Shown: positions 14,955 to 58,729, numbered from the stretch's first letter. The stretch is DNA of 64,000 nt from Bacteroidota bacterium (GCA_031417395.1 JANOVM010000026.1:6567-70566); one strand, 5' to 3'. Notes: a model not told the origin generated them from the letters alone. Made by a program: numbers and translations.

Positions 14955-14996
14955 TCGTTACTCGTCACTCGTTATTCGTTATTCGTTACTCAACTT
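14955..14996 (+). repeat. TCGTTA(C/T) heptamer array ending in TCGTTACTCAACTT
   Basis: Five tandem heptamers; the same family occurs at 57591-57625 and 58410-58729. Confidence 0.85.
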
Positions 14997-15912: not shown

Positions 15913-16000
15913 GAATTTGAAAATTTGAGAATTTGAAAATTTGAAAATGAAGGTACGAACTCCCCATTTTCAAATTTTCATATTCCCAAATTCTCAAATT
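15913..16000. repeat. GAAAATTT-type tandem array with inverted counterpart between convergent genes
   Basis: gaatttgaaaatttgagaatttgaaaatttgaaaatg ... cattttcaaattttcatattcccaaattctcaaatt. Confidence 0.8.
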
Positions 16001-19780: not shown

Positions 19781-21835
19781 ATGCTTAAATCGTACATTTT
19801 CAGATTCACTTTATTGCTTGTTATTATTTCTGCTAATGCTCAGGCTGACTGGCTTACTCCTGAATTATTGTGGAAGATGGGCAGGGTTTCTGATCCGCAG
19901 CTGTCTCCTGATGGTAAACTTGCAGTTTATAATATTCGACGTTTTAATGTGGCGGAAAATAAAGGCAATACTGATATCTGGCTGTATAATTTTTCAACTC
20001 ATTCCGCTCGTGCCATTGCTGCTGATTCAAGCAATGAAATACAGCCGCGCTGGAGCAGTGATGGAAAGAGAATTTTTTATTTAAATGATAAGTCGGGAAG
20101 CCGGTTGTGGAGCATGAATGCCGATGGCAGTGATAAACAGCAGGCAAGTGATATGAAGGAAGACATTAATACTTATGGAATTTCCGGTAATGGAACTATG
20201 ATATGGCTGGGCATTGATGTTAAGCTTGACAGGTTTTTTGGAAAAGATAAATATCCTGATCTGCCCAAATCTACCGGACATGTTTACGATGACCTGATGA
20301 TGCGGCATTGGGATCAATGGGCTGATGGTTCATACAGTCATGTATTTATCGCTCCACTGAGTAATGGAAAAATCAAATCAGATCCTATTGACATAATGAA
20401 AAATGAACATTATGATTCTCCAATGAAACCCCACGGTGGTGATGAAGAAATCAGCTGGAGCCGGGATGGAAAATTACTTGCTTACACGTGTAAAAAATTC
20501 AACGGACTCGAATATGCCGTAAATACAAATTCAGATATTTATCTATACGATGTCGCTTCCGGTAAAACAATAAATGTAACTTCCGATAATGCCGGATATG
20601 ATAAATCTCCTGCTTTCTCTCCTGATGGAACAACGATGGCCTGGATCAGCTGGGAAGAAGCCGGAAACGAAGCATCGCTTCAACGACTATTTACTTATAA
20701 CCTGACGACAAAAGCAAAAAGCAATTTGTCTAAAGGTTTTGAATATAATGTTGAAAACCTGCATTGGTCCGGTAAATCGGATCGTATTTATTTTCTTGCA
20801 GACATTCAGGCAACAGATCAGATATTTTATTGTGAAACTTTGGCTAAAGCAAATAACATTAAGCAATTGACAACGGACATTGCTGATATTAATGGTTTAT
20901 CAATTGCATCAAATGAAAAGAAGGAAGACCTGATACTTGCTTCACGCATGTCTATTTCACAACCGACAGAACTTTTCTCAATCGATGCAAAAACAGGAAA
21001 ATCAAATCAAATAACATTTACGAATGATGATGTACTTTCCCCTTTGACACTAGGAGAAGTTAAAAAAATGATGATAAAAACTTCTGATGGTAAAGAAATG
21101 CTGACGTGGGTAATTTATCCGCCTAACTTTAACCCAAAGAATAAATACCCGACATTGTTGTATTGTCAGGGCGGCCCTCAGAGTACCGTTAGTCAGTTTT
21201 TCTCATACCGCTGGAACTTTCAGTTAATGGCTGCCAATGGCTATATTGTTGTTGCTCCCAATCGTCGCGGACTTCCGGGTTTTGGAAAGGAATGGAATGA
21301 TGAAATTAGTAATGACTGGGGCGGACAAGCAATGACTGACTTACTCAGCGCAATTGATAGTGTTGCAAAATATCCATACGTTAATAAGGATAGGATGGGG
21401 GCAGTCGGCGCCAGCTTCGGCGGCTATTCAGTATTTTGGCTTGCAGGTCATCATCAGCGAAGATTTAAAGCATTTATTTCACATTGCGGCGTATTCAACA
21501 TTGAAAGTATGATTGCAACAGAAGAATTGTTTTTTCACTTGCATGAATTTGACGGAGCCTATTGGAGATTGCCTAAACCGGTAAGCTATACCAAATTCTC
21601 ACCTCACAACTATGTTAATAATTGGGACACCCCAATTTTAATCATCTCTAATGAAAAGGATTATCGGATTCCATATTCCCAAGGCCTCGAGGCATATTCT
21701 GCAGCAAGACTTAAAAAAATCCCTGCTCGTTTTCTGAGTTTTCCCGACGAAGGACATTGGGTGCTTAAACCTCAAAACAGCCTTATGTGGCAGAGGGAGT
21801 TTTTTGGGTGGTTGGATAAGTATTTGAAGAATTAG
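19781..21835 (+). CDS. S9 family serine peptidase (beta-propeller + alpha/beta hydrolase), secreted
   Basis: PD40-like repeats, nucleophile GASFGG, D in EKDYR and H in DEGHW. Confidence 0.93.
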   Translation: MLKSYIFRFTLLLVIISANAQADWLTPELLWKMGRVSDPQLSPDGKLAVYNIRRFNVAENKGNTDIWLYNFSTHSARAIAADSSNEIQPRWSSDGKRIFYLNDKSGSRLWSMNADGSDKQQASDMKEDINTYGISGNGTMIWLGIDVKLDRFFGKDKYPDLPKSTGHVYDDLMMRHWDQWADGSYSHVFIAPLSNGKIKSDPIDIMKNEHYDSPMKPHGGDEEISWSRDGKLLAYTCKKFNGLEYAVNTNSDIYLYDVASGKTINVTSDNAGYDKSPAFSPDGTTMAWISWEEAGNEASLQRLFTYNLTTKAKSNLSKGFEYNVENLHWSGKSDRIYFLADIQATDQIFYCETLAKANNIKQLTTDIADINGLSIASNEKKEDLILASRMSISQPTELFSIDAKTGKSNQITFTNDDVLSPLTLGEVKKMMIKTSDGKEMLTWVIYPPNFNPKNKYPTLLYCQGGPQSTVSQFFSYRWNFQLMAANGYIVVAPNRRGLPGFGKEWNDEISNDWGGQAMTDLLSAIDSVAKYPYVNKDRMGAVGASFGGYSVFWLAGHHQRRFKAFISHCGVFNIESMIATEELFFHLHEFDGAYWRLPKPVSYTKFSPHNYVNNWDTPILIISNEKDYRIPYSQGLEAYSAARLKKIPARFLSFPDEGHWVLKPQNSLMWQREFFGWLDKYLKN

Positions 21836-21867
21836 TACTAAGTACTTAATACTTAGAATTTAGTATT
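21833..21867. repeat. AAGTACT-type heptamer array
   Basis: tagtactaagtacttaatacttag...tagtatt; same family as 45304-45388. Confidence 0.7.
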
Positions 21868-21893
21868 TTTAATTAAGGATTCCAAAAAAAAAC

Positions 21894-21901
21894 TACTTTT
21901 G
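21894..21901 (+). promoter_or_regulatory. Bacteroidota -7 promoter box for the tRNA pair
   Basis: TACTTTTG matches TAnnTTTG and ends 9 nt before the first tRNA base. Confidence 0.6.
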
Positions 21902-21909
21902 CCCTCCTT

Positions 21910-21989
21910 GCCCAGGTGGCGAAATTGGCAGACGCACCACTTTGAGGGGGTGGCGGGCAACCGTACGAGTTCGACTCTCGTCCTGGGCA
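21910..21989 (+). tRNA. tRNA-Leu (GAG)
   Basis: Acceptor GCCCAGG/CCTGGGC, D-loop AAATTGGCAGA, anticodon loop TTGAGGG, long variable arm and T-loop TTCGACT; CCA not encoded. Confidence 0.96.
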
Positions 21990-21995
21990 CTAAGG

Positions 21996-22064
21996 ACAGT
22001 CTGAGTCCGGAGTCTGAGTCCGTCGATACGCAGACTACGGACTCAGACTCCGGACTCAGACTGT
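21996..22064. repeat. Perfect 28-bp inverted repeat built from AGTCTG/AGTCCGG units between the two tRNAs
   Basis: Arms 21996-22023 and 22037-22064 are exact reverse complements, with a 13-nt loop. Confidence 0.92.
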
Positions 22065-22073
22065 AGTTCCCCC

Positions 22074-22157
22074 GCCCGGGTGGCGAAATTGGCAAACGTT
22101 GCGGTCTCAGAAGCCGTTGGAGTTACATCCTTGAGAGTTCGAGTCTCTCCTCGGGCA
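22074..22157 (+). tRNA. tRNA-Leu (CAG)
   Basis: Acceptor GCCCGGG/CTCGGGC, anticodon loop CTCAGAA, long variable arm and T-loop TTCGAGT; CCA not encoded. Confidence 0.96.
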
Positions 22158-22165
22158 CGAAGTAC

Positions 22166-22295
22166 AGTCCGAAGTCCGTAGTCTGAGTCCGGAGTTTCAA
22201 ACTCAGACTGCGGACTTCGGACTCCAGACTCCGGACTTCGGACTCCGGACTTCGGACTTCGGACTACAGACTACGGACTACAGACATCGGACTCC
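22166..22295. repeat. GGACT(T/C/A)C-type heptamer array with inverted arm downstream of tRNA-Leu(CAG)
   Basis: 22166-22188 pairs with 22201-22223 (22/23), then about ten further heptamer units follow. Confidence 0.88.
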
Positions 22296-22571
22296 AGCCT
22301 CAGCCTGCCCTTCCCAACTCTTTTAATTCCCACTTTTTTATTTCTCTATCAGCGTTTTAACTTTTTCTAACTTTTATTGTAAGGTTTCCACAAAAATCAG
22401 CTGAACAGATTTATTTGAATTCACTATAAAGTAAGCAAACAGGACATTATTTAATCTTGTTTCCCTTCAGTTTTATCATCTGTATACGCTACGCACCTGT
22501 AAATAATAATACTCTCATACCCATTAAATAAAGAGAAAAATACTTAAGACTGGTTTTTGGTTAGACGAGAG

Positions 22572-22607
22572 GCCCCGTTCAGCATAGCTGGCGGGGTTTT
22601 TTCTTTT
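22572..22607 (+). terminator. Intrinsic terminator
   Basis: GCCCCGTTCAGC-ATA-GCTGGCGGGGT hairpin followed by a T-rich tract. Confidence 0.75.
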
Positions 22608-22771
22608 ATGATAAATTATTAAGAATTAACATTTTTCAAATCCGATACTAGAGTATTAGCGGACGATAAATGCCCATTCCCCAATACAATCCTCTTCCTG
22701 CCCAACAATTTTTGTAAAGGGATGTGTTCAATTTTAGTTTTGAGAATCATTCAAATTTAAAATCTAAAATT

Positions 22772-23023
22772 ATGAGTACACGAGAAATTCAACAATTTAT
22801 TTATCAGAGAGGCGAGTTTACTTTCTTCGATGGCAAGCAGGATGAAGGAATGATTATCTGCAGGTACAACATTCCGGAAGCACGGATAGAATATTATTTA
22901 ATTCCTGTTTCAAACGTTTTAGCATACCAGGCTGCTAGGGCTCATTCGGAAATCGATGCGCATAAAAAACTGGGATGGAAAATTGATATCGGTAAAATTT
23001 CTAACATTAAAATTCACAACTAA
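22772..23023 (+). CDS. Small hypothetical protein
   Basis: 84 codons including the stop, from the A-rich-preceded ATG at 22772 (MSTREIQQFIYQRGEF...); the ORF track uses an upstream GTG at 22724. Confidence 0.7.
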   Translation: MSTREIQQFIYQRGEFTFFDGKQDEGMIICRYNIPEARIEYYLIPVSNVLAYQAARAHSEIDAHKKLGWKIDIGKISNIKIHN

Positions 23024-23236
23024 TGAATAAGTTAAACATTTACAATAAACTTTTTATACTGTTCTTTGCTATACTGATAGCGATAATAATCAAGAAAGCT
23101 CCTCACGAAAAGAATGAGAACGGCGGCGGAAAAAAATCTGTTATCAGCAGTGAGAAATAAAACAATATATGCTTTGCGGGCATTATGTTTTAATGTTTTT
23201 CTTAAAGGTCGTTAGGAATCCTTTAACGCATATTAT

Positions 23237-23271
23237 AAATCCGGCTTATGGAATTTTCCTTAGCCGGATTT
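23237..23271. terminator. Hairpin just downstream of mgtE (probable terminator)
   Basis: AAATCCGGCT...AGCCGGATTT inverted repeat with AT-rich flanks. Confidence 0.65.
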
Positions 23272-23292
23272 TAATTTTCAGCGGACAATTCG

Positions 23293-24672
23293 TTAAAGCA
23301 AAGTGCCTTTAAGAACCAGAAATGCAATTGTAAAATAAATAATCAGCCCTGTTACGTCAACCAGTGTTGCTATAAAAGGAGCTGATGATACAGCAGGGTC
23401 CCTGCCCAGTTTTTTTAAAACCAGGGGTATCATTGAACCCATAATGGTTCCCCATAAAACAATTCCAATCAAGGTGAATGATACGGTAAGTCCCAGCAGA
23501 AAGTAATGTGGACCGTAAATACTCGTGAATTGTGACCAGGCAAAGATTCTTAAAAAGCCAATAAAACCCAGAAGGCTTCCTAACGCAAGTCCTGAAATAA
23601 TTTCTCGTCGCATAACATGCCACCAGTTGGACCAATCAACTTCACCCAGAGCCATGGCACGAATGATTAGTGTTGCTGCCTGTGAGCCGCTGTTTCCGCC
23701 GCTGGAAATGATTAAGGGAATAAACAATGTCAATACAACAGCTTTACTTAACTCATCGTTAAAAAATCCCATAGCGCTTGCCGTAAGCATTTCTCCCAAA
23801 AAAAGGACGATTAACCATCCAGCTCTTTTCCGAATCATCTTAGCCATGGAGATTTTAAGATAAGGCTCATCAAAGGCTTCCATACCACCGATTTTCTGTA
23901 TGTCCTCTGTATCTTCCTGTTCAATGATATCTACCACATCATCGATTGTAATGATGCCAAGCAATAAACCTTTAAAATCAGTTACAGGAAGGGCAGTCCT
24001 GTTGGTTTGTTTAAAAATTTCAATAGCTGCTTCCTGATCGTCGCGGGCATTCAGGAACGTAAATTGTTTATCCATCAGGTCGCTTACCTTTTTGTCCAAG
24101 GGAGCAAGCAGAAAGTCACGAACTTTTATATCATCAATCAAAAAGCCATTGGTATCTGTAACATAAATATTACTTATCGTTTCACTGTTCTGTCCGAATT
24201 TCCGAATGTAATCAAGTACTTGCTGAACATTCCAGTCTTCTTTTACAGACAGATAATCCGGAGTCATCAACCGGCCAATACTGTCTTCAGGATATTGAAG
24301 GAGTTGTTTTGCTGTTTTTCTCTCTTCATCGCTAAGTAAAGTGAGATACTTCTGCAGAGTTACTTCCGGAAGTTTTTCAAAAAGGGCTGTCCTGTCATCA
24401 GGAGAAATCTGATTAAGTGTGGCAACCAGTTGATCCACACTAAAGGATCCGAGCAAATCCATCTGAATCTTAAAGTCCAGATTTTCAAAGGTCTTAATGG
24501 CTTTTTCAGCTTCCAGAACCTGGAAAACTTTCAGATAATCTATTTCACGGGAATCATTGATCAGTTCAGCCAACTCTTCAGGCTGAATATTGGCAGTCAG
24601 ATGCTTTAGCTTATAAAGATTGCCGGTAACAAGCCGCTCGGCAAGTAATTCTTTTTCGTCAATTTTTGCCAT
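23293..24672 (-). CDS. mgtE: Magnesium transporter MgtE
   Basis: N-domain, two CBS domains, GGNSGSQ motif and DPAVSSAPFIATLVDVTG. Confidence 0.96.
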   Translation of the reverse strand: MAKIDEKELLAERLVTGNLYKLKHLTANIQPEELAELINDSREIDYLKVFQVLEAEKAIKTFENLDFKIQMDLLGSFSVDQLVATLNQISPDDRTALFEKLPEVTLQKYLTLLSDEERKTAKQLLQYPEDSIGRLMTPDYLSVKEDWNVQQVLDYIRKFGQNSETISNIYVTDTNGFLIDDIKVRDFLLAPLDKKVSDLMDKQFTFLNARDDQEAAIEIFKQTNRTALPVTDFKGLLLGIITIDDVVDIIEQEDTEDIQKIGGMEAFDEPYLKISMAKMIRKRAGWLIVLFLGEMLTASAMGFFNDELSKAVVLTLFIPLIISSGGNSGSQAATLIIRAMALGEVDWSNWWHVMRREIISGLALGSLLGFIGFLRIFAWSQFTSIYGPHYFLLGLTVSFTLIGIVLWGTIMGSMIPLVLKKLGRDPAVSSAPFIATLVDVTGLIIYFTIAFLVLKGTLL

Positions 24673-57399: not shown

Positions 57400-57590
57400 A
57401 TACTGTTTAAGGACTTCAGTATTTTTATCTTTTTTTGAAAAAATCTTGATTCCTTAGTATTGATTTTGCATTTTGATGAATGTTATTTTTTATCCCTTGT
57501 TTTTTAATGAGTACTTTTTTTCAAGTCGGTGAAAAAAAGTATCTAGTTAATTCAAGTAGCTTTTACTACTCTCAAATTCTTTCTTGAAAA

Positions 57591-57625
57591 TCGTTAATCG
57601 TTAATCGTTACTCGTTATTCAACTT
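57591..57625 (+). repeat. TCGTTA(A/C/T) heptamer array
   Basis: Four heptamers ending TCGTTATTCAACTT. Confidence 0.82.
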
Positions 57626-57689
57626 TCATAAATCAACATTCGTTAATCTAAAATCAAAATTTATCAATCCATTCATAAATTTTTACCCA

Positions 57690-58385
57690 TCAATACCCAA
57701 TAACCTTCAAATCAAATCCTCCATCCTCGCTAACTTTTTTCGTTTTCGGATAAATTACCTTCGCTTTGTATTTCCCGCTGCGCACCAATATGCTTGTCCA
57801 TTCCTGGACCGGCAGGGAAGTAACCTCTTTTTCATTTTCGTAAACACGAAAGACAATATCCTTATTAGCAGTTTTTAATTTCAATGAAATTTTCTTTGCC
57901 GTAGGTATATCAAAAGAATATACTTTTTCCTGTCCTTGCTCAAGACTTCCGGAAAAGCCCTGCAATACAATCCCTTCATTATTCATTCCAAAAGGAACTT
58001 TACGAAATAAATAACTTCCGTCTTTATCGCTTATGGTCATTCGGCCTTCTGAAATGGAATCTATTTTATAATCAGCTTTGTATTCTTCATTAAAAGAATT
58101 ATAAATAATTTTTATGGAATCATTTTTATTCAGCTCCCAAAAGCCGCTTACATCTGCAGCAACAAAGTCAACCGTTCCATCCGGCCGGAAGTAGTAGCCT
58201 ATGTTATTCAATGAATTTCCCGAGTCCATGCTCCATAATCCATAAATAAAGCTCTTTATAACTTCTGTTGTATCTGTTTTTGCAGCAGAAGTTTTTTCTT
58301 CTTCCGTTTTTCTTTTTTCTGAACAGGAAAAAATTATCAGGAAGAGGGCGAGTAGGGAAAGGGGGGGGATGTATTTCTTAATCAT
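57690..58385 (-). CDS. Hypothetical lipoprotein
   Basis: Lipobox-like IIFSC after a hydrophobic stretch; 231 aa. Confidence 0.8.
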   Translation of the reverse strand: MIKKYIPPLSLLALFLIIFSCSEKRKTEEEKTSAAKTDTTEVIKSFIYGLWSMDSGNSLNNIGYYFRPDGTVDFVAADVSGFWELNKNDSIKIIYNSFNEEYKADYKIDSISEGRMTISDKDGSYLFRKVPFGMNNEGIVLQGFSGSLEQGQEKVYSFDIPTAKKISLKLKTANKDIVFRVYENEKEVTSLPVQEWTSILVRSGKYKAKVIYPKTKKVSEDGGFDLKVIGY

Positions 58386-58409
58386 AAATTATAAATTAAT
58401 AATCATAAA

Positions 58410-58729
58410 TCGTTAATCGTTAATCTCAATCTGAATTCGTTACTCGTTAGTCGCTAGTCGTTACTCAACTTAAAACCGATCGTTACTCGCTACTCGTTGC
58501 TCTGCTATCGTTACTCAACTTAAAACTAATCGTTAGTCGTTACTCGTTGCTCTGCTATCGTTACTCAACTTAAAACGGATCGTTATTCGTTCTTCCGGAT
58601 TCATTACCAGTGGTTTTTGGAATAATGAGTAAGGAAGAACGATTGGTTTAAGTTGAGTAACGATCAACGATTAACGACTAACGATCAAAGATCAACGATC
58701 TACTAATAACGATCCGATAACTATCGGAT
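58410..58729. repeat. Large TCGTTA-heptamer element with three 50-bp-period units and an inverted arm (MITE/REP-like)
   Basis: TCGTTACTCAACTTAAAAC at 58458, 58508 and 58558; inverted copy at 58646-58663; central hairpin TCGTTCTTCC...GGAAGAACGA; palindrome ATCCGATAACTATCGGAT at 58712-58729. Confidence 0.88.

Follow-up and report, generated by a model that had tools for sequence, protein, structure and literature searches.

Long and nearly perfect stems within a stable-RNA precursor are known from the 23S rRNA intervening sequences of bacteria such as Coxiella burnetii and Leptospira (PMC4990558). The C. burnetii sequence is a selfish element containing an S23p ORF, and RNase III cleaves its 28-bp terminal stem in the middle (PMC4990558). 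In Escherichia coli, terminator or trailer hairpins are found a few nucleotides past the tRNA 3' end, after an A/U-rich spacer, and are removed endonucleolytically, while some tRNA operons end in Rho-dependent terminators (PMC2190699). Short tandem units of comparable length have been described in the STRR heptamer repeats of filamentous cyanobacteria, whose function is unsettled and which include hairpin-forming copies between hupS and hupL (PMC2670836), and in the tRNA arrays of Entamoeba, where units of 7-12 bp are confined to the spacers (PMC2652664). In the open-access literature we came across no account of tRNA trailers built from repeats in Bacteroidota, nor of heptamer arrays around S23p genes.

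The locus described here was found in a window of 64,000 nucleotides (GCA_031417395.1, JANOVM010000026.1:6567-70566), which is part of contig C26 of G000, a metagenome-assembled genome (MAG) of 4.47 Mb in 80 contigs with 36.6% GC. Two tRNA-Leu genes are each followed by a hairpin whose arms are tandem units of 6-7 nt. As in the 23S intervening sequences, the stems are long and near-perfect, PF05635 (S23p) genes occur between the arms of related repeat-built stems of the genus, the distribution is sporadic and the elements look selfish or neutral. The differences are that the stems here stand behind tRNA or tmRNA genes or between tRNAs rather than inside 23S helices, that their arms are unit-built and that the Leu hairpins lack an ORF; the position of one stem between two tRNAs sharing one promoter box would speak for a place inside a stable-RNA precursor. 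With the E. coli trailer hairpins they have in common the position, the A/U-rich spacer and, in some members, a T-run, but they are far longer, perfect and built of units, they have a foot shared between genes, and they are found between putatively co-transcribed tRNAs, often without a T-run. The likeness to STRR is architectural only: both consist of intergenic tandem units of about 7 bp, hairpin-capable, lineage-restricted and with several unit families per genome, but STRR belong to heterocystous cyanobacteria, another phylum, the units here are AGTCYG(N) and others, and we found no link to tRNA 3' ends or S23p described for STRR. The Entamoeba repeats are likewise microsatellite-like, next to tRNA genes and variable between close relatives, but they are eukaryotic, belong to tandemly arrayed tRNA units and form neither inverted arrays nor hairpins. 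REP/BIME sequences with their RAYT genes are also dispersed intergenic palindromes, often at gene 3' ends, and RAYT-like genes are present in G000; here, however, only about 20 loci are involved, mostly behind stable-RNA genes, the unit is variable and the RAYT boxes differ.

Concerning the organization of the locus, a -7 promoter box, TACTTTTG, is located at 21895..21902 on the plus strand, 8 nt upstream of tRNA-Leu(GAG). It was read directly from the sequence, the Bacteroidota box type being outside the coverage of the sigma-70-type promoter scan, and it matches TAnnTTTG, the Bacteroidota -7 consensus. No such box was seen upon inspection of the sequence upstream of the second gene, tRNA-Leu(CAG), suggesting that both tRNAs are probably part of one transcript. 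The two genes (21910..21990 and 22074..22158, both on the plus strand) were identified by ARAGORN and Rfam, and it was confirmed that neither encodes CCA: each ends with the discriminator A (21989 and 22157) followed by C74 (21990 and 22158). In all of the 33 tRNA genes of G000 position 74 is C, while C75 is present in 8, A76 in 16 and a complete CCA in only about 4. This universal C74 suggests that 3' processing leaves or needs it.

Both arrays begin 7 nt past the discriminator base, and their unit length alternates between 6 and 7 nt (AGTCTG / AGTCCGN). The spacer stem-loop (21996..22064, plus strand), detected by inverted-repeat search and RNA folding, starts with the foot ACAGT at 21996. 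Its 5' arm, composed of the units AGTCTG AGTCCGG AGTCTG AGTCCGT, occupies 21996-22023 and is 100% complementary over 28 nt to the 3' arm at 22037-22064, across a 13-nt loop, exactly the perfect 28-bp stem that had been proposed between the tRNAs. The RNA folding energy of this stem-loop is -57.8 kcal/mol (z = -10.3 to -11.5), and 0 of 200 shuffled sequences fold equally well; neither extra units nor a T-run are present. The terminal stem-loop (22164..22223, plus strand), found by the same two methods, has its foot ACAGT at 22164-22168 and arms of 23 nt at 22166-22188 and 22201-22223 with one mismatch (96%) around a 12-nt loop; the first 90 nt of this module fold at -51.7 kcal/mol (z = -7.5). 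It is continued on the same strand by a distal tail (22224..22307) of 10 NCRGACT heptamers up to 22293 and then two degenerate units, CCAGCCT CAGCCTG, so that the 23-bp stem with about ten additional units of the original prediction is also correct. The tail contains 30 C and 20 G in 84 nt; beyond it, near 22335, come a stretch rich in C and poor in G and a T-run. The ORF at 22724-23023, 3' of the tail, has no credible Pfam match. Besides the tRNAs, an Rfam search with E up to 5 returned only sub-threshold matches of the Leu hairpins to miRNA-precursor hairpins, and the Gut-1 RNA motif (RF01706) was not among them.

The original prediction proposed a check of other tRNA loci for the same unit, and the outcome was positive. 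We searched the genome for clusters of at least three AGTCYG/CRGACT hexamers and found 20, of which 12 are at most 150 nt downstream of a tRNA or tmRNA gene. This target space amounts to 0.12% of the genome, so that only 0.02 clusters are expected there (binomial P about 1e-30, by our own arithmetic); the family is thus strongly concentrated at tRNA 3' ends. The linked genes are Leu(GAG), Leu(CAG), Asn, Lys, Ala(GGC), Val(GAC), Met, Gly(GCC)/Leu(TAA), Leu(CAA) with three clusters, and tmRNA (C34:33893-34258). A thirteenth cluster lies behind tandemly repeated tRNA 3' fragments with which contig C30 starts; others come after two protein genes (C62 and C34), form two small hairpins on C29, or stand behind a transposase-like gene at Leu(CAA), and one is a chance cluster in a coding region. 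The array at the contig start (C30:1-340) has at least four tandem units of about 79 nt, each with a tRNA 3' fragment (GGACGGGGGTTCGACTCCCCCCCTCGCTACA) and a spacer, with a trailer hairpin, seven CAGACT units and CAGCCTCAGCCTG at its end. This same ending is common to the Leu tail (window 22294-22307) and to the tail at C30:432-445.

By comparing all tRNA trailers of G000 it is evident that the trailer family is larger and includes the AGTCYG arrays as one variant: stem-loops made of 6-7-base repeats trail about half of the tRNA genes of this genome. The foot (A/T)CA(A/G)TNYGA(A/G) is present behind 14 tRNAs and the tmRNA, 4-9 nt and mostly 7 nt past the discriminator, and alignment of the trailers gives the consensus AATACAGTnTGAGTG. 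Concerning the narrower motif ACAGT[CGT][CT]GA, 10 of its 113 genomic copies are within 30 nt past a tRNA end, where 0.013 are expected, and 9 of these 10 are at +5 to +8. The order of the module is the foot, typically (A/T)CAGTNYGAGT, a 5' arm of AGTNNG(N) units of 6-7 nt, a loop and a complementary CNNACT arm. The units of the 5' arm begin with AGT or GAGT (AGTCYG, AGTGTG, AGTTTG, GAGTGAAC). At the ends of transcription units the modules often have a T-run and/or extra 3'-arm units (CACACT, CAGACT, CGGACT): a tail of at least three extra units is present in 6-8 of about 12 terminal modules and in 0 of 4 internal tRNA-tRNA spacers. Since the reverse complement of such a hairpin keeps the order of its arms, polarity can be read from foot and tail only, and we discarded the occurrence of the GT-rich arm first as a sign of it. 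The possibility that the ACAGT foot is itself a Bacteroidota -7 box was also rejected upon inspection, the spacing being off by one. Further families of repeat-built hairpins are found at window 15914-16000 and at many other loci of G000: AATTTGAR (an 8-mer, at least 12 loci), TAATTCGT, CACGAATG and TTAGTAC. The trailers of tRNA-Ser(GCT), Ser(TGA) and Arg(ACG) start with ACAATTTGA, which ties the AATTTGAR family to the tRNA foot motif.

The inheritance of the modules was evaluated in relatives, every one of them a MAG of an uncultured organism, either "Bacteroidota bacterium" or "uncultured Flavobacteriales". G000 and these relatives were all assembled from short reads, so that unit counts inside arrays may be misassembled. 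A pattern formed by the T-arm, 14-24 nt and CAGTNYGAGT occurred in 15 of the 19 congeners examined, in 4 of 6 genomes from a neighbouring genus and sporadically in the rest of the order, altogether in 25 of 146 genomes, while the reversed pattern, used as a control in the same order-level search, gave one match. With a stricter pattern (leading A), among 400 genomes drawn evenly from the class, only the home family and one other genome were recovered. In at least 15 of the 19 congeners the modules have the same offset behind the same tRNAs, whereas unit sequence and copy number differ; the loci of the Leu, Lys, Val and Ala modules are orthologous and conserved in position between species. Behind tRNA-Lys, ACAGTCCGAGT is retained in 7 species, and the 5-nt spacer preceding it is variable. 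In four genomes the orthologous Leu-Leu spacer forms a long hairpin with near-perfect pairing, made of AGTCYG in G000 and G019 (folding at -70.7 kcal/mol in the latter), AGTTTG/AGTGTG in G017 (-45.4 kcal/mol) and GGTTYCG in G009 (-36.8 kcal/mol). In other genera this position has short hairpins, ordinary terminators or nothing.

In the closest relative, G019, the S9 peptidase upstream is 94% identical, and the loop and flanks of the Leu-Leu hairpin are as in G000; the main difference between the two genomes is in how many units are present at Leu(GAG), Leu(CAG) and Val(GAC). The 5' arm of the Leu-Leu hairpin has 9-10 units in G019 and 4 in G000, the terminal tail of G019 is much longer (more than 20 units within the stretch read), and the Val(GAC) trailer has 5 AGTCCG copies in G019 against 6 in G000. 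The same construction is found on metagenome contigs with an identical tRNA-Leu(GAG) 3' end, there with unrelated AT-rich units, and 7 is the best period in 6 of 10 cases. Structure, position and period thus persist while sequence drifts, as expected from slippage with maintained pairing and not from recent insertion. It had been proposed that the perfect stem implies either a recent origin or an ongoing homogenisation. The second idea fits the data, because the hairpins of sister species are near-perfect despite changed units and copy number; the first, together with the idea of elements inserted after the tRNAs, is not supported, in view of the conserved offset in the congeners, the trailer retained at tRNA-Lys, a tRNA-Glu module older than a neighbouring integrase island (see below), and the lack of target-site duplications, terminal inverted repeats or a linked transposase at the Leu hairpins.

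We also evaluated whether the hairpins could be terminators. A terminator scan of 21500-23400 gave no terminator-like site at either Leu hairpin; the sequences following the two stems are GTAGTTCCCCC and CCAGACTCC. Given that the 28-bp stem lies between tRNAs sharing one -7 box and has no T-run, it is probably inside a dicistronic Leu-Leu precursor. A stem followed by a T-run, the feature of intrinsic terminators, is present in other members (Lys, Leu(CAA), Arg(ACG) and the displaced Glu trailer), and these count against a reading in terms of intervening sequences. The Asn module is 5' of a canonical terminator and the Gly(GCC) module is 3' of one. In two congeners, G003 (L222) and G004 (L223), a hairpin of ATTGAAT-type heptamers occupies the 23S-5S spacer and the 5S itself ends in a normal terminator; G006 and G008 lack this spacer hairpin. 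Gene 3' ends of G000 are enriched in long hairpins of any kind: convergent gaps have 0.66 per kb, tandem gaps 0.32 and divergent gaps 0.17. RNase III (C66:43317-43682), RNase Z (C34:95804-96697) and Rho are all encoded in the genome, and the Leu stems of 28 and 23 bp are within the size range of the Coxiella RNase III substrate. Co-option of the modules for precursor processing, which had also been suggested, is a plausible putative role.

Some modules can be dated relative to mobile DNA. A tyrosine integrase gene lies directly behind tRNA-Glu(TTC), in a 6.4-kb island (C24:41264-47760) bounded by the 13-nt repeat CCGCACGGGCTAC. At the far end, about 6.4 kb away, there is a second copy of this 13-nt tRNA end, with a foot-type hairpin and its T-run behind it; in G012 the module comes directly after the same tRNA-Glu end. 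The old tRNA end and its module were displaced together, and the module is therefore older than the island. Among the cargo of the island is a Kelch-repeat protein bearing a T9SS sorting domain. The same is indicated by a tRNA-Arg(CCT)-like 3' fragment with a module on contig C1 (C1:28882) and by the tRNA-Arg(ACG) locus. In the latter (C30:41050-41383) the tRNA and a terminator are followed by a 5'-truncated tRNA-like sequence, from D-loop to 3' end, which bears a foot-type trailer.

The tRNA-Leu(CAA) locus (C36:147000-149250) consists of an intact tRNA, a second copy with a 14-nt palindrome, CCGATAGCTATCGG, in the T-loop, which is not called by Infernal, three copies of an AGTCYG hairpin with T-run and a GATGAGT...GAGTTAGATATTCGGACA box, and a gene for a RAYT-like Y1 transposase (HUH motif SHLHL), of which G000 has about 11 paralogs. 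The weak Y1_Tnp match at this locus prompted us to consider a REP/RAYT origin of the hairpins, which we rejected: the RAYT-like paralogs are flanked by boxes of their own (GCTTCGACGGACATTCGTCCGTTG...) or by GCTGTGCAGGATT, and AGTCYG hairpins are outside those boxes. The REP sequence of the window, again GCTGTGCAGGATT, is unrelated to the AGTCYG hairpins. Hallmarks of MITEs were not observed either, as no duplication flanks the Leu hairpins and the members of the family are not uniform in size (about 45 to about 190 nt).

An S23p (PF05635) ORF is found in the loop of a subset of 23S rRNA intervening sequences, and the PF05635 genes of the genus were examined as well. Four are present in G000, one of them at C30:133911-134222. 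One is located 250 nt behind tRNA-Lys, directly after an AGTCCG/CGGACT array, the second is flanked by GCAATWG and CWATTGC arrays, the third is between GTAACGA and TCGTTAC arrays (C72:56800-57600), and near the fourth no heptamers were found. The TCGTTAC/GTAACGA family also occurs within the window, at 14955 and 57589-58700. A 231-aa ORF on the minus strand of the window (57690-58385), bracketed by inverted AATCGTT / AACGATC arrays, has no Pfam match. Each of 18 of the 19 other genomes of the genus has 2-10 PF05635 genes. Arrays with a period of 5-9 were found within 450 nt of 31 of 32 such genes, on both sides of 16 and as matched inverted arrays at 14, mostly heptamers and in one case an AGTCYG-type pair (G007). 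For the 3,194 ORF-called genes of G000, used as a control, these fractions are 26%, 2.3% and 0.16%.

A PF05635 gene follows tRNA-Lys and its module in 8 species, and further examples are found after the modules of Asn (G012, G003), Val(GAC) (G014), Leu(CAA) (G005), Arg(CCT) (G017, G004) and tmRNA (G015); the corresponding Asn, Val(GAC), Leu(CAA), Arg(CCT) and tmRNA sites of G000 are gene-less orthologues. In G017 a segment of about 560 nt, comprising a hairpin and an S23p gene, precedes a tRNA-Arg(CCT)-like 3' fragment and an older ACAG-type trailer, an arrangement that looks like an insertion. Most PF05635 genes are not beside tRNAs and most tRNA modules have no PF05635 neighbour. Searching with tblastn and 29 S23p proteins of the genus, we found no PF05635 gene at the Leu-Leu locus in 30 genome loci and 20 metagenome contigs, and the loops of the Leu hairpins, of 13 and 12 nt, contain no S23p ORF; the link between these hairpins and the S23p cassettes is thus drawn from the shared architecture and from other tRNA loci. 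The assembled 23S genes of four congeners are of normal length, with no intervening sequence, and G000 has no assembled 23S.

Taken together, these data are best explained if the Leu hairpins are gene-less, intervening-sequence-like members of a lineage-specific family of stem-loops trailing stable-RNA genes, a reading to which we give an even chance. The stem-loops would be transcribed together with the tRNAs, here as a Leu-Leu dicistron from the box at 21895; RNase III would cut the long perfect duplex as it does in 23S rRNA intervening sequences, RNase Z and RNase P would finish the tRNA ends, and copies with a T-run could double as intrinsic terminators. Units would be gained and lost through replication slippage, and arm complementarity could be kept by selection for the stem, by hairpin-templated (quasipalindrome) correction or by both; quasipalindrome template switching is a known mutational route in E. 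coli (PMC7202029). The elements would be tolerated because they are excised, with no benefit to the tRNA required. It is also possible to hypothesize that the repeat-built stems and the Avd-like S23p four-helix-bundle protein are one functional system, a small cassette riding stable-RNA units, both behind tRNA or tmRNA genes and within rRNA spacers. Its oligomeric protein would bind or process the cassette's own arms, with their period of about 7 nt, and the Leu hairpins would be gene-less copies serviced in trans by the four S23p genes. We consider this extension unlikely.

Among the alternatives, one assumes that each tRNA unit needs a 3' hairpin and that native terminator or 3'-protection hairpins became microsatellite-like through slippage of 6-8-nt units, whose loops are too large for MutS repair; proximity to PF05635 genes would then be incidental. 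The ordinary stem and T-run terminators found at the same position in other genera of the family (L008-L012), the members whose T-run comes straight after the stem, the 3'-end enrichment of long hairpins and the AGTCYG arrays lying in sense direction behind two protein genes are all in agreement with this scenario. However, a 28-bp stem without T-run in a probable dicistron is not what it predicts, the Asn and Gly(GCC) modules exist alongside canonical terminators, and slippage alone does not explain a foot motif common to 15 unrelated genes; moreover, bracketing by inverted arrays is about 280 times commoner at PF05635 genes than at other genes. On these grounds we hold the native origin to be possible but somewhat unlikely. 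Quite improbable, in our opinion, is the reading of the original prediction, an active small mobile element (MITE-, REP- or PATE-like) targeting tRNA 3' ends. It would account for the identical foot and offset behind about 15 non-homologous genes, for the close similarity of GAGTGAACAG-type copies across loci, for the duplicated tRNA 3' fragments at Arg(ACG), at C1:28882 and in the C30:1-340 array, for the insertion-like segment of G017 and for the Arg(CCG) trailer, whose type differs between G000 and its closest relative; yet the Leu hairpins lack the ends, target duplication and adjacent transposase of such an element, the Leu, Lys, Val and Ala positions are conserved between species, the Y1 transposases use other end boxes and the REP sequence of the window is unrelated.

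A further alternative concerns only the extra CRNACT units, which could be a C-rich loading (rut) site for Rho, the hairpin acting as a pause before a Rho-dependent terminator while the paired internal stem lets the polymerase through. The restriction of tails to terminal modules, the C bias of the Leu tail running into a G-poor stretch, the CACACT / CAAACT tails that contain no G, the presence of Rho in G000 and the Rho-dependent ends of some E. coli tRNA operons (PMC2190699) all point this way, but the CGGACT unit has equal G and C, tail units are able to pair with the 5' arm so that their single-strandedness is not clear, many tails are 3' of a T-run and perhaps rarely transcribed, and the counts are small. 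As an account of these modules it appears very doubtful; within the preferred reading, that of intervening-sequence-like stem-loops, the C-biased distal tail may add Rho-dependent termination, an idea that is weak for CGGACT units.

These observations indicate that tRNA 3' flanks in this lineage are not random spacers but contain a conserved and fast-evolving structural module, in which pairing and period persist while the sequence turns over. The module brings together heptamer-type intergenic repeats, the orphan S23p/Avd-like family and tRNA genes as landing or riding sites. From a practical point of view, arrays of variable copy number beside conserved tRNAs would serve well to tell strains apart, and MAG assemblies are likely to break at them. 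Should RNase III cut the stems, the maturation of tRNAs in these Bacteroidota would gain a step outside the standard model; and if the association of S23p with the stems is truly one system, it would provide a function for a large orphan protein family and for heptamer repeats of the STRR kind.
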